A stretch of DNA of 64,000 bases from Pirellulaceae bacterium (GCA_045565995.1 JBJLEF010000001.1:1590182-1654181); one strand, 5' to 3'; counted from the first letter of the stretch, positions 27,406-42,789 are shown. A program made the numbers and translations. The notes: generated by a model from the letters alone, not told the origin.

Positions 27406-27473
27406 ATACGAAGTTTTATTGGCTTAGATTAGAGATTAAGCGCCTATCTTTGTGGATAAAAACACCTCTAATT

Positions 27474-27486
27474 AATGGTAACCATT
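27474..27486. promoter_or_regulatory. inverted repeat AATGGT-a-ACCATT ~45 nt upstream of the transporter start
   Basis: Seen directly. This is a candidate operator; no function can be assigned from sequence alone. Confidence 0.2.
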
Positions 27487-27527
27487 GATTTCTTAAGTCA
27501 TGAGAAGATCCACCGGAGTGAAAAGTT

Positions 27528-29021
27528 ATGTCGGAAGAGGGTAAAAAAGGTCACGGTAATTTAACGCTTTACATCATCATCTCGATTGTATTGGCGATTG
27601 CGACGGCACTGGTTCTGCCTATCGTGATGGGAGTGGAAAAAGAAGCCACTACTCTAAGCATCTTCGAAGGCATCGGCATCGGTGGTGAAGTCTTTTTACG
27701 AGCGTTAATGATGATGGTTGTACCGCTCGTGGTCGCTTCGGTTATGAACGGTATTCTCGGTCTCGGCGATGTGCGGAAGCTTGGAAAGCCAGGTTTCACG
27801 GCGGTAGGTTATTATCTGGCAACGACTGTTTTGGCGGTGGCGATTGGTCTTATTACCGTCAATATATTTAATCCCGGGGCTCCAAAAGAGAATCCGGCTA
27901 CAGGCGAGACAGCTGTTGTGCAGTCGGAGGAAGCGGAGCCAGCGACGCACGCTGATGAAATTGTCGTCACTCCCGATGACGTCAGAAAAGTTTTGGACAT
28001 TTTAGAAGATCAAACAGGTCTGGAATCCAGGGAACTGGCGAAGATATTTCCGGGATTATCAGCAGGACTGGAAGAAGAGGAGCCGGGTATCGGGATGATT
28101 TTGGGAAATCTAGTTCTCATGCTATTTGCCGATAATCTGTTTGAGGCCGCCGCCACAATGAATTTACTTCCCTTGATCGTATTCGCGATTATTTTTTCCG
28201 GTATGCTCACGACGATGGGGGAACGAGTTAAAGCGATTACTGATATGATTGAGCAGATTAATGATGCCATGATGAGTTTCGTGATGTTGTTGATGAATCT
28301 AGCGCCTCTGGGGATCTTTTGTTTGATCGCCTCGAACTTCGGTGAAGCGAATGCCAAGGGGGAGTTGATGGATGTGATTTCCCAGAGCGGGATGTTCGTT
28401 CTCACAGTGCTCGTCGGGCTCGGCTTCCACGCATTTGTCACACTTTCAGCTATCTACTGGATCTTCACCAAGAAAAATCCGTATGCCTACATGAAACAAA
28501 TGTCAGAAGCGCTGTTAACAGCATTTTCAACCGCTTCCAGTTCCGCGACGCTGCCACTGACGATGGAATGTGCTAACAAAGCTGGTATTTCCAAGAAATC
28601 GACCAACTTTGTGTTGCCCTTGGGAGCGACGATCAATATGGATGGAACGGCATTATATGAAGCCGCCGCTGCCATCTTTATTGCGAACATTGCTGTTGTG
28701 ACGCATGGTGTTGATCCGTTGACATTTACCGATCAACTCATCGTGGCAGTGACGGCGACATTGGCTGCGATTGGCGCCGCCGGTATTCCGGAAGCTGGTT
28801 TGGTGACAATGATGATTGTGCTTAACGCAGTGGGCTTACCCGTCGAATTGATTTCTTCCGTCTTGGCAATTGACTGGCTTTTGGATCGGTTCCGCACCGC
28901 AACAAATACTTTTGGTGACTCGATTGGTGCTGCTATAGTGGATGAACAGTTTAAGGACATGCGGATTGATGGTGAGGGCTCCCAAGGGCAGGGTACGGAA
29001 ACTGCCGTTGTTCCGGCCTAG
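27528..29021 (+). CDS. dicarboxylate/amino acid:cation (Na+/H+) symporter, DAACS/SDF family (GltP/GltT-like), with an acidic ~70-aa insertion
   Basis: Multiple TM helices are present. The SDF family hallmark 'PLGATINMDGTALYEAAAAIFIA' and 'SSSATLP' are present. The acidic loop is 'ETAVVQSEEAEPATHADEIVVTPDD'. Confidence 0.85.
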   Translation: MSEEGKKGHGNLTLYIIISIVLAIATALVLPIVMGVEKEATTLSIFEGIGIGGEVFLRALMMMVVPLVVASVMNGILGLGDVRKLGKPGFTAVGYYLATTVLAVAIGLITVNIFNPGAPKENPATGETAVVQSEEAEPATHADEIVVTPDDVRKVLDILEDQTGLESRELAKIFPGLSAGLEEEEPGIGMILGNLVLMLFADNLFEAAATMNLLPLIVFAIIFSGMLTTMGERVKAITDMIEQINDAMMSFVMLLMNLAPLGIFCLIASNFGEANAKGELMDVISQSGMFVLTVLVGLGFHAFVTLSAIYWIFTKKNPYAYMKQMSEALLTAFSTASSSATLPLTMECANKAGISKKSTNFVLPLGATINMDGTALYEAAAAIFIANIAVVTHGVDPLTFTDQLIVAVTATLAAIGAAGIPEAGLVTMMIVLNAVGLPVELISSVLAIDWLLDRFRTATNTFGDSIGAAIVDEQFKDMRIDGEGSQGQGTETAVVPA

Positions 29022-29082
29022 AATTCGATGGAGCCATGCGGTTTGAACCCTAGAGATTTACTTTGCAAGAAGACGTAGCAAG

Positions 29083-29766
29083 ATGAAACCTGAGCAAATT
29101 GACGAATTACTAAAACGAACTCTGGACGATCATAAAGTCTCCCGAGGTGAAAAGAAGATTTTGGATGGAATTGTGCGTGAGCACGGCTCTGCTGCGAATC
29201 AACTGGCTTTTTTACGACACCGTGCCTTTGATATGGCGCGTGAACAACTGATGAGTCCTGATGCCAAAGGAGTCCTCGATTGGCTCGAAGACGTGGTGAA
29301 AGCATTTTCCAAGACCGCGCAGGGGCCAGAGGATGAATCGCATGTCTTCTTCAGCCCTGGTGATGATTGCCCTAACGTGATCTCTAACTTGTTTGAGCGA
29401 GCCGAACAGACAGTTGATATATGTGTCTTTACGATTACCGATAACAGAATCACGCAGGCTATTCGGGATGCCTATGTACGTGGCATCAATGTCCGGGTGA
29501 TTACCGATAATGATAAGGCTTTGGATCCGGGTTCTGATGTCGACCGCATGGCTGGACTGGGGATTCCTTTGCGAGTGGATAAGTCACCACATCATATGCA
29601 TCATAAGTATGCCATTTTCGATAAGACAATAACGTTGACCGGTAGCTACAACTGGACTCGTAGTGCTGATCACTATAATGAAGAGAATTTCCTAACCACC
29701 GAAGATCCCAGTATTACGAGGCCATTCATCGGCCATTTTGAGAAACTCTGGGATTCTTTATCGTAA
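29083..29766 (+). CDS. phospholipase D-family single-HKD protein (Nuc-like nuclease/phosphodiesterase fold) with ~90-aa N-terminal extension
   Basis: One HKD motif is present: 'HHKYAIFDKTITLTGSYNWTRSA' (HxKx4Dx6GSxN). There is no second HKD copy, so it would act as a dimer like Nuc or Bfil. No signal peptide is evident. Confidence 0.65.
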   Translation: MKPEQIDELLKRTLDDHKVSRGEKKILDGIVREHGSAANQLAFLRHRAFDMAREQLMSPDAKGVLDWLEDVVKAFSKTAQGPEDESHVFFSPGDDCPNVISNLFERAEQTVDICVFTITDNRITQAIRDAYVRGINVRVITDNDKALDPGSDVDRMAGLGIPLRVDKSPHHMHHKYAIFDKTITLTGSYNWTRSADHYNEENFLTTEDPSITRPFIGHFEKLWDSLS

Positions 29767-30214
29767 CTTGGATGGGGGGGCTCGATGGGTATCTCGAGTC
29801 AGTCATCAACCTTGATGTAATAGATACAGGCTTTGGAGCCCTGACTATTTGGAATGTAAGCGAAATCGCTATTAGGTCAAACCATAGTAGTAAAGAGTAG
29901 CCTGTTGGCTGCTATCTGGAATAACCCCCGGGGTATTGGGGATATTGGAACCCCTTGGATTCTCATGTAATTCAAGGGTTTTTCTTCCAATAAATAGTTG
30001 GCATTAGCGAAGTCATTAATGTCATTGATGTGGATTATTCGCGAACGACCCTTTCATTGTCGAAAGGCAGTAGCCGGCATAATCCGCAGAACCGTCATAG
30101 ATTGGCTGTGTTTCCTGTTTTTTCTAACTAATAGAGAGAACCTAATGGTGCAGCTTTAATACTAGTGGCGATACTTGGGATGTACTTGTCCGTAAAGGGT
30201 TAATACGAAGAACC

Positions 30215-30898
30215 ATGAGTAGTGAATTAACAGAACTAGCGAATCACTTTTTTTCAGCTCCGTTGATTGTTTCAACGGGATTGATGCTATTTGTGATTGC
30301 GTACTGGGTGATTTCTATATTGACCGGTCTGGGGTTAGATGCAATTGACTTCGATCTGGACTTCGATACGGATGCGGATGTGGGTGGAATCGACGGATTT
30401 ATGGGAATCGGTTTATTACCACTCAAATGGCTGAATATCGGAGCAATTCCACTGATGTTGTGGTCTTCGATTTTTGCCGTGGCGTTTTTATTTGCTTCAT
30501 TGGGGGTTGAGCATTATCAGCCATTAACCGAGGAAGCAGCGACCGGCGTCATCGCTGTTCGTGTGATTTGGGTAATGGGTGTAGGAGCTTTAGGCACCAA
30601 ATTTATTACTCAGCCAATGCGAAACTGGTTTAAGGACCGTGCTTTGGACCATCACGAATTTATTGGCAAACAGGCCACAACTCGAATTACAACTCACTCT
30701 ACTCGTGGAAAGATATTTATCGAACGCAAAGAGGGTGATTTGATATCAGAAGCCAGGACGGCTGGAGAAGAAATCCCGAATGGAACTCGGGTAACTGTCG
30801 TGAGTTATGACGAAATTCAGAAGGTGTACATGGTTGCGGAATCGCGTTCGACGGGCGAGGAAACAATAAATAACAACGAGGAAACAAAAAATGTTTAG
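30215..30898 (+). CDS. YqiJ/NfeD-like inner-membrane protein with C-terminal OB-fold (flotillin-partner family)
   Basis: The N-terminal half is hydrophobic with TM helices. The C-terminal 'TTRITTHSTRGKIFIERKEGDLISEARTAGEEIPNGTRVTVVSYDEIQKVYMV' matches the NfeD short-form beta-barrel. Its stop overlaps the flotillin start (ATGTTTAG). Confidence 0.6.
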   Translation: MSSELTELANHFFSAPLIVSTGLMLFVIAYWVISILTGLGLDAIDFDLDFDTDADVGGIDGFMGIGLLPLKWLNIGAIPLMLWSSIFAVAFLFASLGVEHYQPLTEEAATGVIAVRVIWVMGVGALGTKFITQPMRNWFKDRALDHHEFIGKQATTRITTHSTRGKIFIERKEGDLISEARTAGEEIPNGTRVTVVSYDEIQKVYMVAESRSTGEETINNNEETKNV

Positions 30899-33110
30899 CG
30901 AGTTCCTATTCGCACAGAGTAGTATTCCTGGTGGTGGTATGACCATCACCCTGATTGCTATTGGTGCCGGGCTGTTTCTACTGCTGATTCTAGCAGTAGC
31001 CCTTAACAAGTTTTATGTCAAAGTTGGTCCGGACGAAGCTGTGATTCGTACTGGTGTCGGTGGAGTCAACGCGGTCTCTGGTTCAGGGATGTTTGTGATT
31101 CCTCTGGCTCACCAGGCAGAACGTATGGATTTGTCGGTCAAGCGAATTGAAATTAAACGTCAAGGCTCGGAAGGGCTTGTCTGTAAAGACAATATTCGGG
31201 CTGACATTGAAGTCGCATTTTATTTGCGAATTTCAGCGGATAACATGACGATGGTAGCTGCTAAGCTGGGTGCTAAACGAGCCTCAAGCCGTGACGCACT
31301 TATTGAGCTTTTTGACGCTCAGTTTTCTGAAGCATTAAAAACGATCGGTAAGAAGTTTGATTTTGTCGATCTTTATACAGAACGAGATCAATTCAAAGTA
31401 GCCATTACCGAACTTTTGGGTGACCCGGAAGATCTGCAGGGATATGAGCTAGTTAGTACTGCGATTGATTACCTTGAACAAACCCCTGTAGAAGCATTAA
31501 ACCCGTTGAATATTCTTGATGCTGAAGGCATTAAGAAGATTACGGACCTCACTTCGCGTGAAGCTATTCAGTCGAATGATATTGAGCGCGAAAAGGAAAA
31601 GGCGATTACCAAACAGGACGTCGAAGCTCGTGAAGCGATCCTGGCTCTGGAACGTCAGCAGGTTGAAGCCGAAGAACGTCAACGTCGTGAGATTGAAGAA
31701 GTCACAGCTCGTGAACAGGCTCAGGCAGCCGTTGTGAGAGAAGAAGAACGCTTACGTGCAGAATCCCGTCGAATTCAGACGGAAGAGGAACTTCAGGTCG
31801 CTGAAGAGAACAAAGATCGTCAGGTTATTGTTGCTCGTAAGAATAAGGAACGAACGGATGCTGTTGAAACGGAACGTGTGGAACGTGACCGTGGTTTAGA
31901 AGCGACGGATCGTGAACGCGTTATCGCCATAGCTGACATTGAAAAAGACAAAGCGATCGAAGTTGAGAAACGAAATATTCAGGAAGTGATTCGTGAACGT
32001 GTGATTGTCGAACGCGGTGTGGTCGAAGAGCAGGAACGTATCAAGGATACGGAACAGTTCGCAACGGCCGACCGATTGAAACGAGTTACCGTTACCCAAG
32101 CTGAAATGACTGCGGAAGAATCTTTGGTCAAAGAAGTTAAAGCTGCGGATGCCGAAAAGCAAGCTGCTGAACGTCACGCCGAACAGATTGTGATTGAAGC
32201 GGAAGCTCATCGTCAACGAGCTGAGAAAGAAACACAGGCTACCAAAATGTTGGCTGAAGCAAAAACAGCTGACGAAGCCGCTAGTGGATTGGCAGAAGCA
32301 AACGTCACTACAGCCAAAGCAGATGCTAAAGAAAAAGACGGTTACGCGGAAGCTGCTGTTATCCAGCGTAAAGCGGAAGCAGAAGCTAAAGGGCAGGAAG
32401 CAAAAGCTGTGGCAACCGAGAAACAAGGTACAGCCGAAGCAGTGATTGTTCAACGCCACGCAGAAGCAGAAGCGACTGGTATGGTAGCCAAGGCACAAGG
32501 TATCTCGAAAGAGGGTACAGCCGAGGCCGAAGTGATGCAGTTGAAATACAGTTCAGAAGCTCAGGGTATCGAAGAGAAAGCGAATGCGATGAAGCTCTTC
32601 GATTCAGTGGGGAAAGAACACGAAGAATACAAATTGCAACTTAACAAAGATAAAGAAATCGAAATCGCTGCGATTGACGCTCAACGTCAGATTGCAGAAG
32701 CCCAGTCGAATATCATGGGTGAAGCGCTCAAGAGTGCCCGCATTGATATTGTCGGTGGTGAGTCAACCTTCTTCGACCAGGTGGTCAACGCTGTGAAAGG
32801 CGGTAAGGTTGTCGATCGATTCGTGAATAATAGTGAAGTTGTCAGCGATGTTAAGGAAACATTCTTTAACGGCGATCCTGAGTACTTCAAATCTAGAATC
32901 CTTGGTATGGTCGACCAATTCGACCTCAGCACTGATGATGTGAAAGATCTTTCCATCGCAGCTCTAATCGCCAAGATGATCGGTCTCGCTCGAACGGATA
33001 CGATTCGAAATGAGTTGCAGGGACTGTTAGGGATGGCTAAAAGCACCGGTATCTCGAGTGACAAAGCCAGCACTTTCATGGCAGTAAATGCTTCTCAGGG
33101 TGATGCATAA
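30891..33110 (+). CDS. flotillin-like SPFH/Band-7 protein (YqiK/FloT-like), unusually long (739 aa) with extended EA-rich coiled-coil region
   Basis: An N-terminal TM segment precedes 'KFYVKVGPDEAVIRTGVGGVNAVSGSGMFVIPLAHQAERMDLSVKRIEIK' (SPFH start, as in YqiK). Long 'EAEAKGQEAKAV...AEAEATGMVAKAQG' flotillin-type repeats follow. The true start may be M at 30939. Confidence 0.8.
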   Translation: MFSEFLFAQSSIPGGGMTITLIAIGAGLFLLLILAVALNKFYVKVGPDEAVIRTGVGGVNAVSGSGMFVIPLAHQAERMDLSVKRIEIKRQGSEGLVCKDNIRADIEVAFYLRISADNMTMVAAKLGAKRASSRDALIELFDAQFSEALKTIGKKFDFVDLYTERDQFKVAITELLGDPEDLQGYELVSTAIDYLEQTPVEALNPLNILDAEGIKKITDLTSREAIQSNDIEREKEKAITKQDVEAREAILALERQQVEAEERQRREIEEVTAREQAQAAVVREEERLRAESRRIQTEEELQVAEENKDRQVIVARKNKERTDAVETERVERDRGLEATDRERVIAIADIEKDKAIEVEKRNIQEVIRERVIVERGVVEEQERIKDTEQFATADRLKRVTVTQAEMTAEESLVKEVKAADAEKQAAERHAEQIVIEAEAHRQRAEKETQATKMLAEAKTADEAASGLAEANVTTAKADAKEKDGYAEAAVIQRKAEAEAKGQEAKAVATEKQGTAEAVIVQRHAEAEATGMVAKAQGISKEGTAEAEVMQLKYSSEAQGIEEKANAMKLFDSVGKEHEEYKLQLNKDKEIEIAAIDAQRQIAEAQSNIMGEALKSARIDIVGGESTFFDQVVNAVKGGKVVDRFVNNSEVVSDVKETFFNGDPEYFKSRILGMVDQFDLSTDDVKDLSIAALIAKMIGLARTDTIRNELQGLLGMAKSTGISSDKASTFMAVNASQGDA

Positions 33111-33141
33111 GGCATCCGTTAGTACACCTTCGGAATGTGGT

Positions 33142-33179
33142 AGACCAGCCTCCGGCTTCGGATTGCTGGAGGTTGGTCT
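33142..33179 (+). other. stable RNA hairpin between flotillin and the AAA+ gene (12-bp stem with one G-U, 14-nt loop), not followed by a U-tract
   Basis: 'agaccagcctcc'-ggcttcggattgct-'ggaggttggtct' is seen directly. Confidence 0.4.
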
Positions 33180-33320
33180 GCGACTCCTTTCTTCCGCACC
33201 TGTCCGCCAGACCGAAAGGTCTTAGGAGAGTTGTGAGGACGAGGGCACTCCCGGTGTACCACCTGAACTTACCTTCGGATAACTATTCCTCAACGGGATA
33301 TTCATTAGAGAGTTCGTATT

Positions 33321-36300
33321 ATGGCTCAAGAAGAACAGCAGCCAGACAACACGCAGACTCCAGAGGATAATTCACCTCAGCTGGAAAGCGGTACGTATGA
33401 AATTATACGTAACCGACTCAAAAGCTTTGCCGGTGAATTACGGGATCGGCTTAACAGCCTGAACGGAGCGCGTAAGGATGTCTTTGGAGCAATTGAAACC
33501 ACGCTTTTAGGAACGGAGCGTGTGACGACCGCGCACAATTGTGTCCCTCGTGACATGATTGCTATCGGCGAGCAATTCATTTTTGGCTACAACATTCACT
33601 TTGGTCTGCGTCAAACCACGCATCCTGCAGATGTCTTCGCGGTTTACACCTTCCGCGATGGATCATTTCACACAGAAGAGTCTGATCTTCTGACCGATTC
33701 AAACTTTGAACGTGATTTTCAGGAGATTTACAAGTATTACAAAGATGCCGAATTTACGAAGTTCTTCGTGATTGGGCCTTTTGTCTATATGACTTTTCGC
33801 GTTGGTAAAGGCGTTAACGACTATAAGAGTCTAAAATGGAAGATTGAGGATAAGAAGCTCACTTACGTTGATAATCGTAGTGATCATGAAGTGGAATTTC
33901 CATCACAGCACGATTTCCCCTGGCGTCGGGCAACTCGTGACCAATTTGAAGAAGGTCGACATCCGCATGTAAGCATCGACGACCGGTTGTTCGTTGAGAC
34001 GACAGGTGGTGATCTGACCATCAAGATCGAGAACAACACGGAGTCTGGTGAAGGCATATATTCTGAGCCAGTTGAAAACCTCGATCAAACTCTTGATGAC
34101 GCCGAGATTCTTTATGCGGTTAACGGTAGTTTGATTCTGGTAAGGATTCGCCCTTATCAGGAAGAGTCTAACCGATATTTTATTTATAACGACAAGGTTA
34201 AACGTGTGTGGCGTTGTGATTCGATTGAGGAATCCTGCGTGCTGCTGCCTGATGACCATGGTGTCATCTTTGCCAATGGTTATGCACTCGCCACGGGTGA
34301 ATTTAAAGTGTTTGACACTGAGCTTCAACACTTGAAGTTCGATCGTCGACTGGATGCTCCTAATGGTGAAGACTACCTCTATGTTTTTTACTGCGAAGAT
34401 ACGGGAACATACGTCTTACTACGGTACAACCTGATCCAACAGGAAGTAGACACCCCAGTCATCTGTAATGGGACATCATTTTTCCAGGCAGGAGAAATGA
34501 TCTGCTTTCGTGCTCAGGCGGAACCTCAAAAGCACCATGCGCTGCAGATCTGGCAAACTCCGTATGTCTCAGAGGACTACGTGCTGGACACGAACACCGA
34601 TTCATTCTTATATAAAATTGGTAATAAAGATCTCGTGCGTGGGATGGCCGAGTGTTACGAAGTTATTTCGTTGATCGAAAAAGATGATAGCTATTCGGGG
34701 CTATACACGGACCTGGCGAAAGCAGCTGGCGACGTAGCGGATGCCTATTTCTGGTCCACGAATGAGGAATGCTTCAGAATTTCTGAACCACTGGCTGAAA
34801 TTCGTCAGGCTGCAGAATCAGCAATCGATGAATTCGAGAAAGTCGTTCGTGTTAAGCAGAACACTTTAGATCAAACCCGTCAGGTTGAAGCTCGAGTCAC
34901 CGAGATTCTTCGTGTCGTGCAAAACAGTCGATTTGAAAATATCGATGAATTTGTGCAGGCACTGGCGGAATTGCGGGCCGTACGTGGTGAGATTATTTCA
35001 TTGCGTGAATTACGTTACAACAATCCGGAACTGATTAACGATTTGGAATCGCAGGTTTCCGAAAGCAATGATCGTCTCAGCCAACGCTGCGTCGAGTTCC
35101 TACTGCGCGATGATGCTCTGGCTCCCTATGCCAAACGTGTGGATGGACAAGCAGATGCAATTCCGGCATTGACGAAAGTCACCGATGCCAAAGGCTTGGA
35201 AAATGAAATTTCAGCTAGTGCTTCGGAATTGGAAATGCTAATTGATATCGTCAGTAATCTGGAAATTGAGGACGCGACTCAGCGAACTCGAATTATAGAA
35301 AATATTTCGACCATCTTTGGCAAAGTGAACACTGCCCGTGCCTCCCTCAAAGGTAAAGTCAAAGACCTGATGAGTGTCGAAGGAATCGCTGAATTCAATT
35401 CTCAGATGAAACTACTTAATCAGGCGGTGGTTAATTATCTGGATATCTGTGACACTCCTCAGAAGTGTGAAGAATTCCTCACTAAAATGATGATCCAGTT
35501 GGAGGAACTGGAAGGTCGGTTTGCGGAGTTTGATGAGTTTGTTGTTCAACTGACGGATAAACGCGAAGAGGTATACAATGCGTTTGAAACTCGCAAAGTC
35601 AGTCTGGTGGAAGAAAGAAATAAACGAGCATCGTCTCTAATGAATGCGGCGGATCGTATTCTCAAAGGCGTGAAGTCACGTGTTGATAGTTTGGAATCGG
35701 TCAACGAAATCAATGCTTACTTTGCCTCTGATCTCATGATTGAAAAGATCCGCGATTTGGTGGATCAACTCAAACACCTTGATGACAGTGTGAAAGTGGA
35801 TGATGTTCAGAGTCGTCTTAAGACAGTTCGCGAAGATGCTGTAAGACAACTCAAGGACCGCCAGGAGTTGTTTGTTGATGGCGAAAACGTCATCAAGTTT
35901 GGTAAAAATAACTTCTCCGTTAATATCCAGTCATTGGACCTGACTTCCGTTCTGCGAGATGGAGAGATGTTCTATCACCTGACTGGTACAGATTTCTTTG
36001 AACGCATTGATGACGAAGAGTTGCTGGCAACTCGGGATGTTTGGCAGCAGGAAGTTATTTCGGAAAATACAGAGGTGTACCGTGGTGAATACCTTGCATA
36101 TCAGATGTTTGCCGAGTTGCACGATAACACTGAAATGTCTCTCGAGGCATTTTCAGGATTGGATGATGAGCAACGCGTAGCTGAACTCCAAAAGTTCATG
36201 GGGCCACGATATACGGAAGCCTATGCGAAAGGGGTGCATGATCTTGATGCGGCAAAGCTTGTGAAAACTTTGGCAGAGATGGAATTATCTATCGGCTTGC

Positions 36301-38624
36301 TTAGGTATCACACGAAGGCTCGTGCGTTAGCACGTCTGTACTGGGAATACTTTGGTGATAATATCCAAAAGTCGTTGCTCCAGTCACGCTTGAGTGGAGT
36401 AGGGACGATTGCGCAGCTATTCCCAAGTAGTGCCGAACAACAACAGTATGTTGCCGTGATTGAGCCGATGTTGGCTGAGTTTGTGAACTCGACAGGGATG
36501 TTTTCGGAAGACTATGTAAATCAAGCTGCCAACTATCTTTTTGAAGAATTGACAGTTAGTAATCAGTTTGTCATCAGTCGCAAAGCAGCCGAATTGTACG
36601 AAGCTTTTGAACGCCATTTAAAACAGAATAGCTTTGTCGATAAATTCAAATCCAGTGTTACAAAACTCGTCAAGAGCCCTCTGGAGCGATTCATTCTTCT
36701 ACGCGACTGGTTAGAAGCGTTTCTAATGGAAACCACCCAGGATTCGGTCGCAGATGATTACGTGAATGAACTGGCTGTGATGTTGATGAAAGGTTCGTTC
36801 AACAAGAAAAATGTCATCGACGGAACGGTTGAGCGGGTGATCAATGGGATGATTGGTAACCATGGCGTTGTCGAAAAAAATTCATATCAGTTTAATTACA
36901 ACGAATTCATCACCAAGATGGAACGTTTTGAGCGAGTGGTTGTTCCAAAATATCGTGACTATATCGATATTAAAAAAGAAGTGATCGAACGTGCTAAAGA
37001 AGATCTGCGTTTGGATGAATATCGTCCTCGGGTGCTCACGTCATTTGTCCGGAACCGTCTGATTGACGAAGTTTATCTCCCACTGGTTGGTGATAACCTG
37101 GCGAAACAGATTGGTGTGGTCGGCGACCAAAAGCGTACAGACCTGATGGGCTTACTGCTTCTGATTTCTCCTCCGGGTTATGGTAAGACGACGTTGATGG
37201 AGTATGTGGCTAATCGTCTGGGAATTATCTTCATGAAGATTAACGGTCCTGCGATTGGACATGCAGTGACCTCACTAGATCCTGAGGAGGCTCCGAATGC
37301 AGGAGCTCGCGAAGAAGTAGAGAAGTTGAACCTGTCACTTGAAATGGGTGACAATGTGATGATTTATTTGGATGATATCCAGCACTGTAATCCAGAGTTT
37401 CTGCAGAAGTTCATCTCGCTTTGTGACGCTCAAAGAAAAATCGAGGGGGTTTATAAAGGTCAGACTAAAACTTACGACCTACGGGGTCGCAAGGTTTGCG
37501 TCATCATGGCTGGTAACCCGTATACGGAAAGTGGTGAGAAATTCCAGATTCCGGATATGTTGGCCAACCGTGCAGATATCTATAACCTCGGTGAGATTAT
37601 AGGAGATACTCGGGAAGCGTTCGAAATGAGTTACCTTGAAAACTGCCTTACTTCGAATCCAGTGCTCAATAAGCTTGCGAGTCGTAGTCAGAAAGATGTT
37701 TACAATATCATCCGGATTGCTGAAACTGATTCGCAGGAAGGCGTCGAATTTGAGGCTAACTACTCGATGGAAGAAGTTAGCGAAATGGTTAGCACGATGA
37801 AAAAACTGATGCGAGTGCGTGACGTAGTGCTGCAGGTGAATCGTGAATATATTAATTCAGCCGCACAGGCTGATGACTACCGCACGGAGCCTCCATTTAA
37901 ACTACAGGGTTCGTATCGAAATATGAACCGTATTGCTGAGAAGGTTCTTCCGATTATGAACGACGAAGAGCTGGAAACGCTGATTAAAAGCAGCTACGAA
38001 AATGATGCTCAGACGCTTACAAGTGATGCCGAGGCCAATCTCCTCAAACTCTATGAAATGTGTGGTTGGATCGATGAGGAGCGCGCCGCTCGTTGGGATG
38101 ACATTAAGAAAGCCTTCGTCAAAAACATGAAGCTCCGTGGTGTCGGATCCGATGACCAATTTGGGCAGGTCGTACTGCAGATGCAGGGTTTCACGGATGG
38201 TCTGGAAGAAATACGTGAAACAATCAGTGATGGCGTAAAGGATTTGGCGACGACAAAGGCGGAGCCTGTTGTGGTCGAAACGCCAGCTGCTGAAGGAAGC
38301 GAAACTGGTGGCGGAACAGCCGAGGCATTGATGAGCCTGGCAGAGGAATTACGAGCTTATACGACTGGCGCGATTACCGTGGATGAGTCCAAAGGTGTCC
38401 AACGCGTAGCTGTAATGCATAAGGTGCCTAAATCGATCCTCAGTGTGTTGGAGAATCAGTTCCAGGTTATGAATGAGTGGATGAGGCCCATGATGGAATC
38501 ACAGCATGCCAGTGCGCAGACGGTTGAAAAGCTGAGCCAGTCTGTTGATCAATGTCTTAAGTCATATGACAGCCTCATCAGTGGCCTGAGGGGCGACGGT
38601 GACGAGATTAATGCCGAGGAATAA
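33321..38624 (+). CDS. giant (1767 aa) cytoplasmic protein with a single MoxR/dynein/midasin-type AAA+ (AAA_5-like) ATPase domain near aa 1270-1440; remainder beta-rich N-terminal domain plus long alpha-helical regions
   Basis: Walker A is 'LLLISPPGYGKTTLMEYVANRLG' and Walker B is 'VMIYLDDIQHCNPE'. The sensor-1-like 'VCVIMAGNPYTESGEKFQIPDMLANRADIYNL' parallels MoxR 'ATQNP...LPEAQLDRF'. No signal peptide or TM segment is evident. The gene is on the same strand 211 nt after flotillin. Confidence 0.6.
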   Translation: MAQEEQQPDNTQTPEDNSPQLESGTYEIIRNRLKSFAGELRDRLNSLNGARKDVFGAIETTLLGTERVTTAHNCVPRDMIAIGEQFIFGYNIHFGLRQTTHPADVFAVYTFRDGSFHTEESDLLTDSNFERDFQEIYKYYKDAEFTKFFVIGPFVYMTFRVGKGVNDYKSLKWKIEDKKLTYVDNRSDHEVEFPSQHDFPWRRATRDQFEEGRHPHVSIDDRLFVETTGGDLTIKIENNTESGEGIYSEPVENLDQTLDDAEILYAVNGSLILVRIRPYQEESNRYFIYNDKVKRVWRCDSIEESCVLLPDDHGVIFANGYALATGEFKVFDTELQHLKFDRRLDAPNGEDYLYVFYCEDTGTYVLLRYNLIQQEVDTPVICNGTSFFQAGEMICFRAQAEPQKHHALQIWQTPYVSEDYVLDTNTDSFLYKIGNKDLVRGMAECYEVISLIEKDDSYSGLYTDLAKAAGDVADAYFWSTNEECFRISEPLAEIRQAAESAIDEFEKVVRVKQNTLDQTRQVEARVTEILRVVQNSRFENIDEFVQALAELRAVRGEIISLRELRYNNPELINDLESQVSESNDRLSQRCVEFLLRDDALAPYAKRVDGQADAIPALTKVTDAKGLENEISASASELEMLIDIVSNLEIEDATQRTRIIENISTIFGKVNTARASLKGKVKDLMSVEGIAEFNSQMKLLNQAVVNYLDICDTPQKCEEFLTKMMIQLEELEGRFAEFDEFVVQLTDKREEVYNAFETRKVSLVEERNKRASSLMNAADRILKGVKSRVDSLESVNEINAYFASDLMIEKIRDLVDQLKHLDDSVKVDDVQSRLKTVREDAVRQLKDRQELFVDGENVIKFGKNNFSVNIQSLDLTSVLRDGEMFYHLTGTDFFERIDDEELLATRDVWQQEVISENTEVYRGEYLAYQMFAELHDNTEMSLEAFSGLDDEQRVAELQKFMGPRYTEAYAKGVHDLDAAKLVKTLAEMELSIGLLRYHTKARALARLYWEYFGDNIQKSLLQSRLSGVGTIAQLFPSSAEQQQYVAVIEPMLAEFVNSTGMFSEDYVNQAANYLFEELTVSNQFVISRKAAELYEAFERHLKQNSFVDKFKSSVTKLVKSPLERFILLRDWLEAFLMETTQDSVADDYVNELAVMLMKGSFNKKNVIDGTVERVINGMIGNHGVVEKNSYQFNYNEFITKMERFERVVVPKYRDYIDIKKEVIERAKEDLRLDEYRPRVLTSFVRNRLIDEVYLPLVGDNLAKQIGVVGDQKRTDLMGLLLLISPPGYGKTTLMEYVANRLGIIFMKINGPAIGHAVTSLDPEEAPNAGAREEVEKLNLSLEMGDNVMIYLDDIQHCNPEFLQKFISLCDAQRKIEGVYKGQTKTYDLRGRKVCVIMAGNPYTESGEKFQIPDMLANRADIYNLGEIIGDTREAFEMSYLENCLTSNPVLNKLASRSQKDVYNIIRIAETDSQEGVEFEANYSMEEVSEMVSTMKKLMRVRDVVLQVNREYINSAAQADDYRTEPPFKLQGSYRNMNRIAEKVLPIMNDEELETLIKSSYENDAQTLTSDAEANLLKLYEMCGWIDEERAARWDDIKKAFVKNMKLRGVGSDDQFGQVVLQMQGFTDGLEEIRETISDGVKDLATTKAEPVVVETPAAEGSETGGGTAEALMSLAEELRAYTTGAITVDESKGVQRVAVMHKVPKSILSVLENQFQVMNEWMRPMMESQHASAQTVEKLSQSVDQCLKSYDSLISGLRGDGDEINAEE

Positions 38625-38645
38625 TCCTTTCAGGCAGAGGATTTT

Positions 38646-39764
38646 TCATATCGTTAACCAACGATCGCGGCTGGAAACTTCCCAGTTTTCAGAGACCTGC
38701 CCGTCTTCGATCACATAAGCGGATTTATGAAGTGCGCTTGTTGGGCAAATATGCCCCGGAACAGCTAGAAGTTCATCCCCCGGTAGGAAATCACTCGCGT
38801 TTTCGAGACGTAAGACCAGATGCTCCTCGTTTTGAAGAATCGGTTCTGCGTTAGGCAGATCCGGAAAGACGACTCGTTTCGTGACATCAGGATCAGAGGC
38901 ACAGGCTTTATAGCCCAGATCGACAGTGATTGTCTCTTCGGTGGGCCGACTGATCACTCTGGTGAGGATTCGAGCTGCAGGTATGTATTGAAGGTCCGGA
39001 AACATTTTACCGTAGTTGTTATCAAAGAATGTGTTGGTACCGGGACTTAATTCCAAAGCTGGATCAGAGATAGAAGCATAAACCGGGAAGCTCCCGGTTC
39101 CGCCTGCGACGATGCGGGGTACGCTGAGTCCCTCACTCTCGAGTTGATCGCGGAAGTTGGAGGCTAATTGCCAACAGGACATCACGGCCTGCCGACGCGC
39201 TTCCAAGTCGGTCTGGTGATTCTGTCCATCATACAAATGAATGCCTCCAGGTGTGATGCCTGGCAGATCGTCAAATAACTGGTAGATCTGTGTTGCCGTT
39301 TCGCCGGGTGTGATTCCTGTTCGATGTTGCCCGGAATCTAAATCTAGCAGCAGTTCAATCGATTGATTTGCTGCTGACATCGCTTGCGAAAGCTGACGGA
39401 CAGGAGCTTCATGGTCAGCTGTTGCTATCAACTGTACGTCGTTGTATCGCGTCACGAAATCGACGGCTCGTCGAATATTCGGACCGACAAGATTGTATCC
39501 CAGTAGAATATCTTTGACGCCGGCTGCTGCCAGCATTTCCGCTTCGGCAAAGGTCGCACATTTGTGCTTTGTAATTCCCATTCCGAGTTGGATCTTAGTC
39601 ACGGCTTCCATTTTGTGTGTCTTGCAGTGAGGACGCAAGCGAGTGACGTCTCCGGCTTCCCGAAGCATTTCAGCCAGATTTTCATTCATCACTTCACGAA
39701 AAACAACCAAGCCAGGTGAGACGATTGATGAGGTGTCCTGAATTTTGAAATTGCATGCAGTCAT
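38646..39764 (-). CDS. PLP-dependent enzyme of the alanine-racemase-fold DSD1/D-threonine aldolase family
   Basis: 'RLRPHCKTHKM' matches the PLP-lysine block 'RPHxKTHK' of this family. The ~370-aa size fits. Confidence 0.6.
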   Translation of the reverse strand: MTACNFKIQDTSSIVSPGLVVFREVMNENLAEMLREAGDVTRLRPHCKTHKMEAVTKIQLGMGITKHKCATFAEAEMLAAAGVKDILLGYNLVGPNIRRAVDFVTRYNDVQLIATADHEAPVRQLSQAMSAANQSIELLLDLDSGQHRTGITPGETATQIYQLFDDLPGITPGGIHLYDGQNHQTDLEARRQAVMSCWQLASNFRDQLESEGLSVPRIVAGGTGSFPVYASISDPALELSPGTNTFFDNNYGKMFPDLQYIPAARILTRVISRPTEETITVDLGYKACASDPDVTKRVVFPDLPNAEPILQNEEHLVLRLENASDFLPGDELLAVPGHICPTSALHKSAYVIEDGQVSENWEVSSRDRWLTI

Positions 39765-39804
39765 TTTTATACTCGGTGATTACGGTGTTAAATCGTAATG
39801 CATT

Positions 39805-40779
39805 TTAATGAGATTGCTCCCGGTTTACCAAATAGATTCCGCTCGCCACCAGAATCAAGGAGACAAAAATCCAGGATGACAAAGGGTCGTCTCGGAATAT
39901 GGCTGCTGCCGAGATTCCAAATAGTGGAGTAAGGAAGCTGAAAACGGAAATCCTGGTGGCAGAGTATTTCTTTAATAGCATCGTTTGGACGGCGAAGCAC
40001 ATACCTCCCACGATGATGCCCTGATAGACCAGTCCAAAGATAACTTCGTCGTTCACATGCTCTATCGAAATCTGGCCCACCTCAAAGAATAGAGCAGTGG
40101 GGATGAACCAAAGGACTCCGATAAAGTCATGCCAAAGAATGATCGTTCCTGCAGGTACTTTGGCCAGACTGGCTTTGATAAACAATATTTTGATTGCCAG
40201 AATTAAAGCACTCACGATGATGATCATATCGCCAACAATACTTGCCTGATCCGTCGTTGGGGTATTGTTATGGGAAGACTTGATGATCAATGTAACCAGA
40301 GCACTTGCCCCGGCTAACAGGCAACCGAATAGCTGAATCTTCGTGATCCGATGATTGCCGGTGAAGAAGTGCTCGAAGACCAGTACCCAGATGATGTAGG
40401 TGTTAATCAGGATCGTGGTGTGGGTCGAGTTGGTCAGATGAACGCCAATAGTAAAGGTGGCGATTTGAGCGAACAGTAGCGTTCCGGCAAGAAAGCACGG
40501 GCCAAGCTGTCCACGAGTAAGTTTAATCGGTTCCTTTAATAGTCGACACCAAACGACCATAAATAGCGTGGCCATGGCAAAGCGAATTCCGCTGACCGTA
40601 AGCGGTGGTAGACCTAGCAGCGTTTCCTCTGAGAAGAGGCTGTATTTCGCCGCAACAGGATTTCCTCCCCAGCAAGCAGAAGTCAATATTACTAAGCCGA
40701 TGGCCGAAAAGGGTAGTGCAATATTGTTTGAGTCTTGGGACGTCGGTTCAACTGGAGTAAACTTACCGGTATCGTTCAT
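39805..40779 (-). CDS. EamA/DMT-superfamily transporter (10-TM)
   Basis: Two repeated 5-TM hydrophobic halves of ~140 aa are present. The size and composition are typical of EamA permeases. Confidence 0.6.
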   Translation of the reverse strand: MNDTGKFTPVEPTSQDSNNIALPFSAIGLVILTSACWGGNPVAAKYSLFSEETLLGLPPLTVSGIRFAMATLFMVVWCRLLKEPIKLTRGQLGPCFLAGTLLFAQIATFTIGVHLTNSTHTTILINTYIIWVLVFEHFFTGNHRITKIQLFGCLLAGASALVTLIIKSSHNNTPTTDQASIVGDMIIIVSALILAIKILFIKASLAKVPAGTIILWHDFIGVLWFIPTALFFEVGQISIEHVNDEVIFGLVYQGIIVGGMCFAVQTMLLKKYSATRISVFSFLTPLFGISAAAIFRDDPLSSWIFVSLILVASGIYLVNREQSH

Positions 40780-40899
40780 TGCTTTGAATTATGAGCGGAA
40801 ACGTGCATCGTAAACCACCATGTATACTAAAGCCACACCTATGTCTGACAGACTGCCTGAAAAAGCGTAGTTCGTGGTTGATCTTTAATTAAGCGAGAC

Positions 40900-42789
40900 G
40901 TGATGTATTACAAATATTTTTTGGCTTTCATTATTCCGCAGATTTTAAGTTTTTCCCCAATTTCTGTTTTTGCAGCCCAGAGACCAAACGTTGTTTACAT
41001 CATGGCTGATGAACTTGGTTATTTTGAACCGTCTTTTATGGGAAGTCAGACAATCCAGACCCCACGTATTGACGAGTTGGCGCGTCAGGGCGTGTGGTTT
41101 ACTCAGGGTTTGGCAGGATCTTCGGTCTGCGCCCCAACACGATGTTGTTTTTTGACAGGCAAACACTCCGGTCATACTTCTGTTCGGGTGAACGGGGGGG
41201 GGACCCCGCTGCGAAGTGAAGAGGTGACGATTGGAACCATCCTGAAGGAAAGAGGGTACGCCACTGGAGGTTTTGGGAAATGGGGATGTGGTGGCCGCGG
41301 TTCCACCGGAGTTCCTGAGCAGCATGGCTTTGACTTGTTTGTTGGCTATTATGATCAGGTTCATGCCCACAGTTATTATCCACCCTATATCATCCAAAAT
41401 AGTCAGGAGTTGAGGTTGCCTGGAAACCTTGGTGGCGATCAGGGTCAGACATATTCGCACTACGTGATTATGGATCGGGCAAAACAGTTTATTCGTGAGA
41501 ATCAGACAGAGCCATTCTTTTGTTATTTGCCGATCACTCCCCCTCATGGGATGTTCAACATCCCGGACCAGGATCCTGCCTGGGAAAAGTATCGTGATAA
41601 GGATTGGCCTGAATCCGCCAGACGTTATGCAGCGATGGTTACGATGGTCGATCGTCAGGTTGGTGAGATGATTGATCTGCTACAGGAACTGGATCTGGCA
41701 GAAAATACGATTGTATTTTTCAGTGGTGACAATGGCGGCAACGATTATTTCAAATCGGACGAGTATCCGCGTGGACTACATGGGGCGAATGTTCATCCAG
41801 AAACCGGTGAGCAGTTTCGGGGTACGAAAGGAACATTGTATGAAGGGGGATTGCGAATCCCTGCTTTGGCCTACTGGCCGGGAAGAATCGAAGGAGGCCG
41901 TGTTAGTGATCACCTCTGGTATTTTCCCGATATTCTTCCCACTCTTGCGGACATCACAGGAGCTAAAGCCCCAAAGGATATTGATGGAATTTCTTTCTGG
42001 CCGGAGTTACAGGGGAAATACTCGCGCAGAAAACAGGCTCAGCATGAATATCTGTATTGGGAAATTGGAGGGCAAAGAGCTTTGCGATTTAAACAAATGA
42101 AGGCGATCCAACCCGGTGCACAGCGTGATTGGGAACTGTACGATTTGTCAGATGATATCAGTGAATCGGTTAATGTGGCGGAGCAGCAGGGGGAGTTGCT
42201 TGAAGTGATGAAAATGTTTGCGAATTCCGCGCATACTGATGCAAGAGAGGGAACGTTCGCCGACCGCGTGAATCATGAAAAAGACCGACAGGCAAAATGG
42301 GGTTCGACGCGAGTGACTTCGTCGCCACAGAACGTTTCGAAACTGGACACTAAAGGGCTGATTGCGCAAAACGAATGTAAAATTGTAGATTTCAGCAGCC
42401 AAAGTATAGCTGGGAAGCGATTGGCTCAATATGTACTGGATGGTAATCCTCGCACGCATTGGCATACAGAATATGTTCCGGAGGTGCGGAAACAACCTCA
42501 CCACTTAGTTATCGATTTGGGAAAGCCGCGTTCTGTGACGGGTATTCGGTATCTTGCCAGACAGGATGGTGGATACAATGGTGCGATTGCCAGATTTGAA
42601 GTCTACGTAAGTCAGGATGGTGTGAAATTTGAAACACCGGTGGCAACCGGTACGTTTCAACGTAACCGGAGTAATCAGCAACAGACCTTCAGTGAGGTTT
42701 CTGCAAGGTTTGTAAAAATAGTTGCTCTCACTGAAGTTAACGGCGGTCCCTGGGCATCGGCAGCCGAGATTGGAGTCATTGGAAAGTGA
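40900..42789 (+). CDS. arylsulfatase (formylglycine-dependent) with C-terminal F5/8 type C (discoidin) domain; secreted
   Basis: A signal peptide precedes 'RPNVVYIMADELGY' and the sulfatase signature 'SVCAPTRCCFLTGKHSGHTS' (C-x-P-x-R). The C-terminal 'YVLDGNPRTHWHTEY...IRYLARQDGG' is discoidin-like. Confidence 0.85.
   Translation: MMYYKYFLAFIIPQILSFSPISVFAAQRPNVVYIMADELGYFEPSFMGSQTIQTPRIDELARQGVWFTQGLAGSSVCAPTRCCFLTGKHSGHTSVRVNGGGTPLRSEEVTIGTILKERGYATGGFGKWGCGGRGSTGVPEQHGFDLFVGYYDQVHAHSYYPPYIIQNSQELRLPGNLGGDQGQTYSHYVIMDRAKQFIRENQTEPFFCYLPITPPHGMFNIPDQDPAWEKYRDKDWPESARRYAAMVTMVDRQVGEMIDLLQELDLAENTIVFFSGDNGGNDYFKSDEYPRGLHGANVHPETGEQFRGTKGTLYEGGLRIPALAYWPGRIEGGRVSDHLWYFPDILPTLADITGAKAPKDIDGISFWPELQGKYSRRKQAQHEYLYWEIGGQRALRFKQMKAIQPGAQRDWELYDLSDDISESVNVAEQQGELLEVMKMFANSAHTDAREGTFADRVNHEKDRQAKWGSTRVTSSPQNVSKLDTKGLIAQNECKIVDFSSQSIAGKRLAQYVLDGNPRTHWHTEYVPEVRKQPHHLVIDLGKPRSVTGIRYLARQDGGYNGAIARFEVYVSQDGVKFETPVATGTFQRNRSNQQQTFSEVSARFVKIVALTEVNGGPWASAAEIGVIGK

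Follow-up and report, generated by a model that had tools for sequence, protein, structure and literature searches.

Background

Do an NfeD-like membrane protein, an enlarged flotillin and a giant ATPase, encoded one after the other on the same strand of bacterial DNA, belong to a single system, and if so, what could such a system do? The question is raised by positions 30215-38624 of a 64,000-nt stretch of DNA from a Pirellulaceae bacterium (GCA_045565995.1, JBJLEF010000001.1:1590182-1654181), and by "the window" we mean this whole stretch. An initial annotation, made from the sequence alone, had described the three genes as a candidate membrane-microdomain system in which the ATPase acts on flotillin assemblies. 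We followed up this proposal computationally and find that the three genes form a conserved unit in many phyla, that the ATPase belongs to a family whose database name is misleading, and that the arrangement had been described before.

Operons that pair NfeD-like and flotillin genes are themselves well established. Hinderhofer et al. (2009; PMC2636767) describe NfeD2-SPFH2 operons, including yqiJK of E. coli and yuaFG (floT) of B. subtilis, and an ATPase is never mentioned in their survey of prokaryotic SPFH operons. The window resembles yqiJK and yuaFG in that an NfeD-like gene encoding three transmembrane segments is located immediately before the SPFH gene and is tightly coupled to it; unlike the window, these operons contain no ATPase gene.

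Conservation of the three genes

The genes and the junction of the first two are as follows.

30215-30898, + strand: YqiJ/NfeD-like gene, 227 amino acids (aa), with three transmembrane segments and a C-terminal soluble domain
30891-33110, + strand: flotillin/YqiK-type SPFH gene, 739 aa
33321-38624, + strand: DUF3686-family ATPase gene, 1767 aa, soluble product
30891-30898, + strand: overlap of the YqiJ-like stop codon with the flotillin start codon, 8 nt, ATGTTTAG

The coordinates match exactly the three co-directional open reading frames (ORFs) claimed by the initial annotation, and the overlap claimed there can be read directly: the NfeD-like ORF ends with the codons AAT GTT TAG and the flotillin ORF starts with ATG TTT AGC. 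In many related loci the same junction is an overlap of 8 or 4 nt or a gap of 0-5 nt.

A scan of one genome per species yielded at least 545 relatives of the ATPase, from which we kept 80 loci with 51-97% identity to the window ATPase; the 65 of them that include enough upstream sequence constitute the set assessable for adjacency to a flotillin gene. The loci span Planctomycetota (Planctomycetia and Phycisphaerae), Bacteroidota (Pontibacter, Rufibacter, Roseivirga and others), Verrucomicrobiota, Desulfobacterales, Hydrogenedentota and Calditrichia. A flotillin gene is located directly upstream of the ATPase gene and on the same strand in 61 of the 65 assessable loci (94%), representing at least six phyla, and the flotillins found at this place in other phyla match the window flotillin with phmmer E-values from 1e-190 to 0. 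A YqiJ-like orthologue directly precedes the flotillin in most related loci, and the gap between flotillin and ATPase is as small as about 0-20 nt in some genomes (measured between longest ORFs, with tblastn match starts). The flanking genes vary between loci. Because adjacency to the flotillin is kept across phyla while the flanks change, we regard the triad as a conserved unit, as had been proposed; the counts decisively contradict the opposite expectation that homologues of the ATPase never occur beside flotillin or NfeD-like genes.

The pairwise divergence of the ATPase is correlated with that of the flotillin and with that of the NfeD-like protein (Pearson coefficient about 0.81; Spearman 0.42 and 0.35, respectively). 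All three proteins are unusually conserved, the mean pairwise identity across phyla being 55% for the ATPase and 57% for the flotillin, and the system is found in the cultured planctomycete genera Gimesia, Symmachiella, Rhodopirellula, Stieleria and Roseiconus. We consider it very probable that the genes constitute a functionally linked module.

Relation to a published operon

The novelty that had been claimed for the arrangement does not hold. Ravi, Anantharaman et al. (mSystems 2024; PMC11237479) describe genes for a YqiJ/YuaF protein with three transmembrane segments, a band-7/flotillin protein and a protein combining a beta-propeller, a coiled coil and an AAA+ domain, which occur with CesT/Tir-PspA, and they tabulate as an example the gene order in the Dokdonia donghaensis neighbourhood of ANH61663.1. 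They also report a PLD(HKD) hydrolase in "some Proteobacteria" and state that abbreviated operons without CesT/Tir-PspA are "more widely distributed", so that the operon, its PLD variant and its PspA-less form are all on record there. The text consulted assigns the ATPase to no clade or Pfam family and reports neither a structure nor an experiment.

We identify the family of the window ATPase with that of Ravi et al. because one of the loci that we retrieved through homology to the window ATPase, from Roseivirga (L046), has exactly their gene order: a PLD gene and a gene of the HTH-S24 type on the minus strand, followed by CesT_Tir_1, PspA, YqiJ, flotillin and ATPase. Genes for CesT_Tir_1, PspA and HTH-S24 adjoin the triad in three further Bacteroidota loci (L074, L076 and L077). 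The HTH-S24 gene, at 1932-2729 (minus strand) in L046 and present in the same three other loci, encodes a LexA/CI-like repressor with an HTH and a Peptidase_S24 domain and is divergent to the CesT/Tir-PspA-YqiJ-flotillin-ATPase genes, which suggests control by self-cleavage under stress. The linkage to CesT/Tir-PspA and HTH-S24 in some Bacteroidota points to an envelope or membrane stress context, and the same contextual inference is drawn by Ravi et al.

The window shares with the operon of Ravi et al. the gene order, the three domain architectures and the optional PLD(HKD) gene. It differs from the full form in that CesT/Tir-PspA is absent within 64 kb, and it thus equals the abbreviated form with a PLD gene added. 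No CesT or PspA homologue was detected in the window or in the Planctomycetota loci (phmmer, E<=1e-3). The PLD variant, which Ravi et al. assign to "some Proteobacteria", is found here in Planctomycetota and Bacteroidota.

Literature searches returned no paper that links DUF3686, PF12458 or the name "DNA repair ATPase" with flotillin, and no experimental study of a flotillin-ATPase operon. What the present analysis adds is a quantified synteny, the assignment of the ATPase to the MoxR type with a Walker-B DD, its identification as DUF3686 together with the recognition that the family name misleads, the occurrence of the PLD link in Planctomycetota and Bacteroidota as well, the affinity of the PLD protein to MitoPLD/Zucchini, and a recurrent hairpin after the flotillin gene.

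The giant ATPase

The Pfam scan of the 1767-aa protein gives DUF3686 at residues 39-477 (2.4e-186), DUF7902 at residues 598-681 (3.3e-29), and AAA (8.7e-7) and AAA_5 (5.1e-5), which place an AAA+ module near residues 1279-1400. Hydrophobicity analysis finds no transmembrane segment, in agreement with the soluble protein of the initial annotation. The ATPase has more than 4300 homologues. A search with the N-terminal DUF3686 region retrieves 739 clusters at 50% identity (E<=0.001); those of the listed members that are long measure about 1550-2040 aa and carry the domain at the N-terminus in nearly all cases. Judged by these matches, DUF3686 is a compact family of fixed architecture.

Structure was predicted with AlphaFold2 on alignments of 22 sequences, with a mean pLDDT of 79 for residues 1-900 and 71.5 for residues 881-1767. 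The model contains a helix at residues 23-55, a beta domain at residues 61-412 whose strands, about 26 in number, pair as hairpins, a helical rod at 429-849, a helical domain at about 921-1160 and, in the C-terminal part, an AAA+ alpha/beta core with a lid, followed by a poorly predicted tail. Three parts of the gene can be assigned accordingly.

33501-34556, + strand: beta-propeller-like domain (ATPase residues ~61-412) inside DUF3686, from the AlphaFold2 model and Foldseek
34605-35867, + strand: helical rod (ATPase residues ~429-849), with DUF7902 inside it
37038-38120, + strand: MoxR-like AAA+ module (ATPase residues ~1240-1600)

All Foldseek matches of the N-terminal part to the Protein Data Bank (PDB) are beta-propeller proteins, namely IFT-A, Elp1, clathrin heavy chain, prolyl oligopeptidase, paraoxonase and WD-repeat proteins, with E-values from 1e-7 to 1e-3 and low TM-scores (0.08-0.17). 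The helical part resembles spectrin-like bundles or coiled coils and not an alpha-solenoid.

Sequence searches slightly favoured the classical AAA family, with Cdc48/p97, for the AAA+ module, and its fold is closest to MoxR members. The MoxR pattern is also seen in the string of motifs downstream of Walker B and in the NP..E.G...P..L..R segment. On these grounds the label "MoxR/dynein-type" of the initial annotation stands. The motifs comprise Walker A (SPPGYGKTT, residues 1283-1291), Walker B (VMIYLDD, residues 1346-1352, window positions 37356-37376), sensor-1 (AGNP) and an arginine in the PDMLxNRAD pattern. Across 53 sequences from several phyla, Walker A PGYGKTT, Walker B hhhhDD and sensor-1 AGNP are invariant, and the arginine-bearing pattern is present in 47 of the 53. 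The canonical Walker B hhhhDE is absent, an aspartate taking the place of the usual catalytic glutamate in every one of the 53 family members, which suggests slow, switch-like hydrolysis. Proteins of the MoxR group such as NorQ, CbbQ and RavA have about 250-500 aa; in the window ATPase, propeller, rod and helical domains add about 1200 aa on the N-terminal side, and Walker B has DD in place of DE.

In Pfam and NCBI the DUF3686 family bears an automatically assigned name, "ATPase involved in DNA repair" or "DNA repair ATPase". Pfam and NCBIfam scans show no DNA-binding, repair or nuclease domain in the ATPase, its weak matches to RuvB_N and clamp loaders are confined to the P-loop, and a search against PHROGs returned only a generic clamp-loader P-loop match. 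We conclude that the family name is misleading. As a separate observation, the ATPase of a Rubripirellula metagenome-assembled genome (MAG; L068) is split into two ORFs (7920-10250 and 10572-13235), a sign of either pseudogenisation or misassembly.

The YqiJ-like protein and the flotillin

The first protein of the triad falls just short of the Pfam cut-off for YqiJ_N (22.3 bits, 1.5e-4; cut-off 23) and below that for NfeD (20.2 bits, 6.7e-4; cut-off 29.1), and its Pontibacter orthologue in L064 clears the YqiJ_N cut-off with 29.5 bits. Its hydrophobicity profile contains transmembrane-like windows at residues 18-36, 75-93 and 108-131.

The full-length flotillin has no match in the Pfam and NCBIfam scans, which is probably an artefact of composition filtering because the first 256 aa alone match PF01145 Band_7/SPFH at residues 44-247 (2.3e-14, 54.3 bits; cut-off 23.6). 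The protein has a single N-terminal transmembrane segment at residues 19-37 (mean Kyte-Doolittle score 2.82), an E/A-rich coiled coil at 241-560, of which 63% is E, A, K, R or Q (19% E, 18% A), and a C-terminal domain at 561-739. Its homologues carry the database names flotillin family protein or YqiK. Neither residues ~238-647 nor the last 198 aa match Pfam Flot (PF15975) at E-value limits from 1 to 10, a result that the HMMER bias filter may have produced by suppressing a match, and neither the full-length sequence nor the SPFH part alone matches a PDB chain by sequence. The flotillins of the E. coli and B. subtilis yqiJK and yuaFG operons have about 510-550 aa. Full-length copies in the loci related to the window have about 660-770 aa, which bears out the enlarged flotillin with an EA-rich coiled coil of the initial annotation and makes the extra length a trait of the whole subfamily. 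Three loci contain, just upstream of the full-length copy, a short additional ORF similar to flotillin (L044, 2451-3044; L058, 4201-4770; L074, 5008-5559), which may have arisen by partial duplication or by a frameshift, or may represent a second, small gene of the SPFH type.

The spacer between flotillin and ATPase

Flotillin and ATPase are separated by 210 nt (33111-33320), one fewer than the 211 nt given by the initial annotation, whose description of a co-directional spacer with a structured hairpin is otherwise confirmed. The spacer folds with -86.8 kcal/mol (z = -4.47 relative to shuffled sequence) and contains the following stem.

33140-33181, + strand: stem-loop with a 17-bp stem in the flotillin-ATPase spacer, found by folding

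The stem is followed by no T-run and was not flagged as a terminator. A promoter/terminator scan, whose sites in the region are no more numerous than in shuffled sequence and whose models do not include planctomycete promoters, detected in the spacer neither a canonical terminator nor a promoter resembling those of sigma-70. The hairpin matches no RNA family when 29700-39000 is scanned with Rfam, and the 210 nt contain no credible small ORF.

The stem is identical in the close relatives L003 and L004, which therefore provide no covariation information, and is replaced by different, unrelated hairpins in the more distant L043 and L009. Hairpins at this place are recurrent: 62% of 63 loci have a strong one in the 100 nt that follow the flotillin stop codon (z < -2 relative to mononucleotide shuffles). 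In the Pontibacter loci L062, L064 and L073 the hairpin is followed by a T-run, as in a true terminator. These three and the Bacteroidota loci L077, L046 and L058 contain 0.6-1.8 kb of extra sequence between flotillin and ATPase, which includes a DUF3800 gene in L064 and a 113-aa ORF without a Pfam match in L046. The hairpin may be a recurrent intra-operon attenuator or mRNA-stabilising element that keeps the expression of the ATPase lower than that of the scaffold.

The upstream PLD gene

Two further features are located upstream of the triad.

29083-29766, + strand: single-HKD PLD-superfamily gene, 227 aa, MitoPLD/Zucchini-like
29952-29978, + strand: terminator-like hairpin with a T-run between the PLD and YqiJ-like genes, from a consensus scan

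The PLD protein matches PLDc_2 (1.4e-26), has no transmembrane segment and contains one motif of the form HxK(x)4D(x)6GSxN (HHKYAIFDKTITLTGSYN, read from the translation). Its best solved relatives are structures of mitochondrial cardiolipin hydrolase, that is, MitoPLD/Zucchini (9lkx, 2.9e-26; 4ggj, 1.3e-23), and Nuc (3e-12) and NucT (1.7e-7) are more distant. The initial annotation had called it a single-HKD nuclease; the single HKD motif is confirmed, and nuclease is one possible reading, with MitoPLD well ahead of Nuc and NucT. The window protein shares with MitoPLD/Zucchini (PLD6) the one HKD motif and a similar size, and differs from it in that about 85 aa of helical sequence are added at the N-terminus and a transmembrane anchor is lacking.

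PLD homologues are found directly upstream of the YqiJ-flotillin-ATPase triad in L003, L004, L009, L043 and L075, and a search started from the PLD protein added three metagenomic contigs (L083-L085, 54-63% identity) with the same arrangement, one of which has a different upstream flank. In the Roseivirga locus, too, a PLD homologue (E = 2e-62) adjoins the triad. Because the PLD gene is syntenic in related lineages, the three-gene system of the initial annotation, although conserved as a triad, probably comprises four genes here, and, as far as gene order can tell, the PLD protein is probably a fourth, accessory component. The hairpin at 29952-29978, a stem of 10 pairs followed by TTTTTCTTCC, may separate the PLD gene from the triad transcriptionally; such sites are no more frequent in the region than in shuffled sequence.

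Neighbouring genes

Farther upstream, a giant ORF of 6732 aa (4107-24305, + strand) has fragments that match a Peptidase_M10/Reprolysin zinc-metalloprotease motif, Beta_helix, GEVED, many Big_9 and Cadherin_4/5 repeats and a C-terminal dockerin; from these matches it looks like a giant surface or adhesin-like protein, and giant genes that resemble it are also located upstream of the system in L083 and L084. It is followed by a gene for a Ser/Thr protein kinase fused to an NMT1_3/phosphonate-binding-like periplasmic domain (25135-27405, + strand). A Pkinase gene (4877-7684) is also located immediately upstream of the ATPase gene in L082, a locus without flotillin. Downstream of the window ATPase is a gene of the D-serine dehydratase-like/alanine racemase fold (38646-39764, - strand), with homologues within a few kb downstream in L002, L083 and L084, and next to it, in the window and in L084, an EamA transporter gene (window 39805-40779, - strand). 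The dehydratase-like gene is probably a matter of local synteny within the family and not a component of the system.

A possible mechanism

What could the module do? In published work, SPFH scaffolds figure as partners of AAA+ machines and of protein quality control, with HflK/C and FtsH as an example, and FloA-NfeD is reported to stabilise unfolded proteins. By analogy with solved SPFH/NfeD complexes and with FloA-NfeD, the coupled YqiJ-like protein with its three transmembrane segments and the long flotillin would co-assemble into an SPFH cage or scaffold at the cytoplasmic face of the inner membrane. The ATPase would oligomerise through its MoxR-like AAA+ ring, as NorQ and CbbQ suggest, and its N-terminal propeller and rod arms might attach to the flotillin assembly or to proteins that it contains. 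ATP turnover would then open, disassemble or unload the assembly in a chaperone-like remodelling, comparable to FtsH in HflK/C cages or to Vps4 on ESCRT-III/PspA polymers. More speculatively, the MitoPLD/Zucchini-like protein might act on a lipid such as cardiolipin in the same membrane patch, and the post-flotillin hairpin might hold the expression of the ATPase below that of an abundant scaffold.

HflK/C-FtsH also couples an SPFH scaffold to an AAA+ machine at the inner membrane, and it serves as an analogy only: FtsH is a membrane-anchored protease of the classical AAA clade and HflK/C faces the periplasm, whereas the window ATPase is soluble, MoxR-like, devoid of a protease domain and three times larger. 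PspA/ESCRT-III with Vps4 likewise combines a membrane-bound polymer with a dedicated AAA+ remodeller, and some Bacteroidota have a PspA gene physically linked to the triad; the window differs in having an SPFH polymer, another AAA+ clade and no MIT domain in the Pfam scan.

Several observations weigh against this mechanism or against the unit on which it is built. Four loci (L053, L057, L081 and L082) have the ATPase with no flotillin within 8 kb, and the 64-kb window itself contains no PspA (phmmer, E<=1e-3). In the window the ATPase is parted from the flotillin by 210 nt and a strong hairpin, and co-transcription of the two is not assured because of this hairpin and spacer, the T-run hairpins of Pontibacter and the extra gene, or space for one, inserted in those Pontibacter loci; hairpins after genes are common, and the ATPase may be transcribed independently in this genome. 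The Walker-B DD could also be compatible with weak hydrolysis or with none. MoxR ATPases usually work with a vWA partner, and no vWA match was found among the main ORFs scanned at 25135-44531; such a partner may be encoded elsewhere in the genome. A lipid role of the PLD protein is not established, its nearest solved relatives including the nucleases Zucchini and Nuc. Finally, physical contact of the ATPase with the flotillin and NfeD-like proteins is conjectural. The particular remodelling mechanism, drawn from analogy, is a tentative proposal that we stop a little short of favouring.

Alternative explanations

The locus could instead be an anti-phage or conflict module, in which the AAA+ protein would sense infection, the PLD protein would be a nuclease effector and the flotillin and NfeD-like proteins would perturb the membrane. 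The PLD protein has a weak resemblance to DrmC, NucT and DpdK (the PADLOC hits, to DrmC, Mko and DpdK, are weak), an AbiEii toxin-like fragment (7372-7884) is found directly upstream of the flotillin-less ATPase in L053, a Cytophagales MAG, the insert in L064 is a DUF3800 gene, the Bacteroidota loci have the HTH-S24 repressor, and the spread of the system over several phyla, with identities above 50%, would fit horizontal transfer. However, PADLOC gives no match for the YqiJ-like protein or the flotillin and only a spurious Csm6 match for the ATPase (0.0034, with no stretch over the threshold), the PLD protein is far closer to MitoPLD than to DrmC or NucT, and the neighbours are housekeeping and metabolic genes and not a defence island. 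The very high conservation and fixed architecture would also be unusual for fast-evolving defence genes, and the system is present in many cultured planctomycete genera. Where the initial annotation held that the genes could equally be a defence module, the evidence thus leans the other way, and we regard a defence function as improbable.

Another possibility is that the ATPase is a coat-like protein that bends or vesiculates membranes together with the flotillin, its AAA+ part being a built-in uncoating or assembly motor. The idea has some appeal in that the top Foldseek matches of the N-terminal 900 aa, IFT-A, Elp1 and clathrin heavy chain, combine a beta-propeller with a helical part, the gene is linked to that of a membrane scaffold and the family is abundant in Planctomycetota, which have complex endomembranes. 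The very low TM-scores limit this likeness to the level of domain type, though, the helical part does not resemble an alpha-solenoid, and Bacteroidota and Desulfobacterota, phyla not known for complex endomembranes, have the family just as well; we consider a coat function quite improbable. A third possibility is that the ATPase is a DNA-repair enzyme, as the Pfam and NCBI family name and the P-loop matches to RuvB_N and clamp loaders might imply, and its adjacency to the flotillin a historical accident. An accident is hard to reconcile with an adjacency that persists in 94% of the assessable loci, in different phyla and next to varying flanks. Nor does a repair function agree with a protein in which Pfam and NCBIfam detect no DNA-binding or nuclease domain, whose RuvB-type similarity is that of AAA+ proteins in general, whose fold is closest to the chaperone-like MoxR ATPases, and for which we found no paper under the family name or accession. 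We think it very improbable indeed that the genes are unrelated neighbours. Taken as a whole, we favour, if by a small degree, the reading that the genes serve membrane maintenance, with the ATPase as a remodeller of flotillin/NfeD assemblies or of their clients.

Implications

The flotillin, the NfeD-like protein and the ATPase are conserved like core housekeeping proteins in at least six phyla. The practical gain from their analysis is a corrected annotation and a clear, testable candidate system that is available in, among others, the cultured Gimesia, Rhodopirellula and Pontibacter. If the ATPase acts on the scaffold, the system would show how SPFH assemblies open or recycle and would tie them to the PspA membrane-stress response.

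A bolder form of the proposal, which we put forward as possible though rather unlikely, is that the ATPase and the flotillin/NfeD cage form a physical supercomplex, in which the ATPase would be a dedicated ATP-driven opener or unloader with its arms on the dome, and the MitoPLD-like enzyme would remodel the enclosed lipid. The role of bacterial flotillins is debated, and to our knowledge no energy-consuming partner of a flotillin has been characterised. Were the supercomplex to exist, bacteria would have in it an SPFH-based equivalent of ESCRT-III/Vps4 or HflKC/FtsH, and its ATPase would be the first energy-consuming partner of any flotillin, which would provide a handle on the function of flotillins in bacteria.

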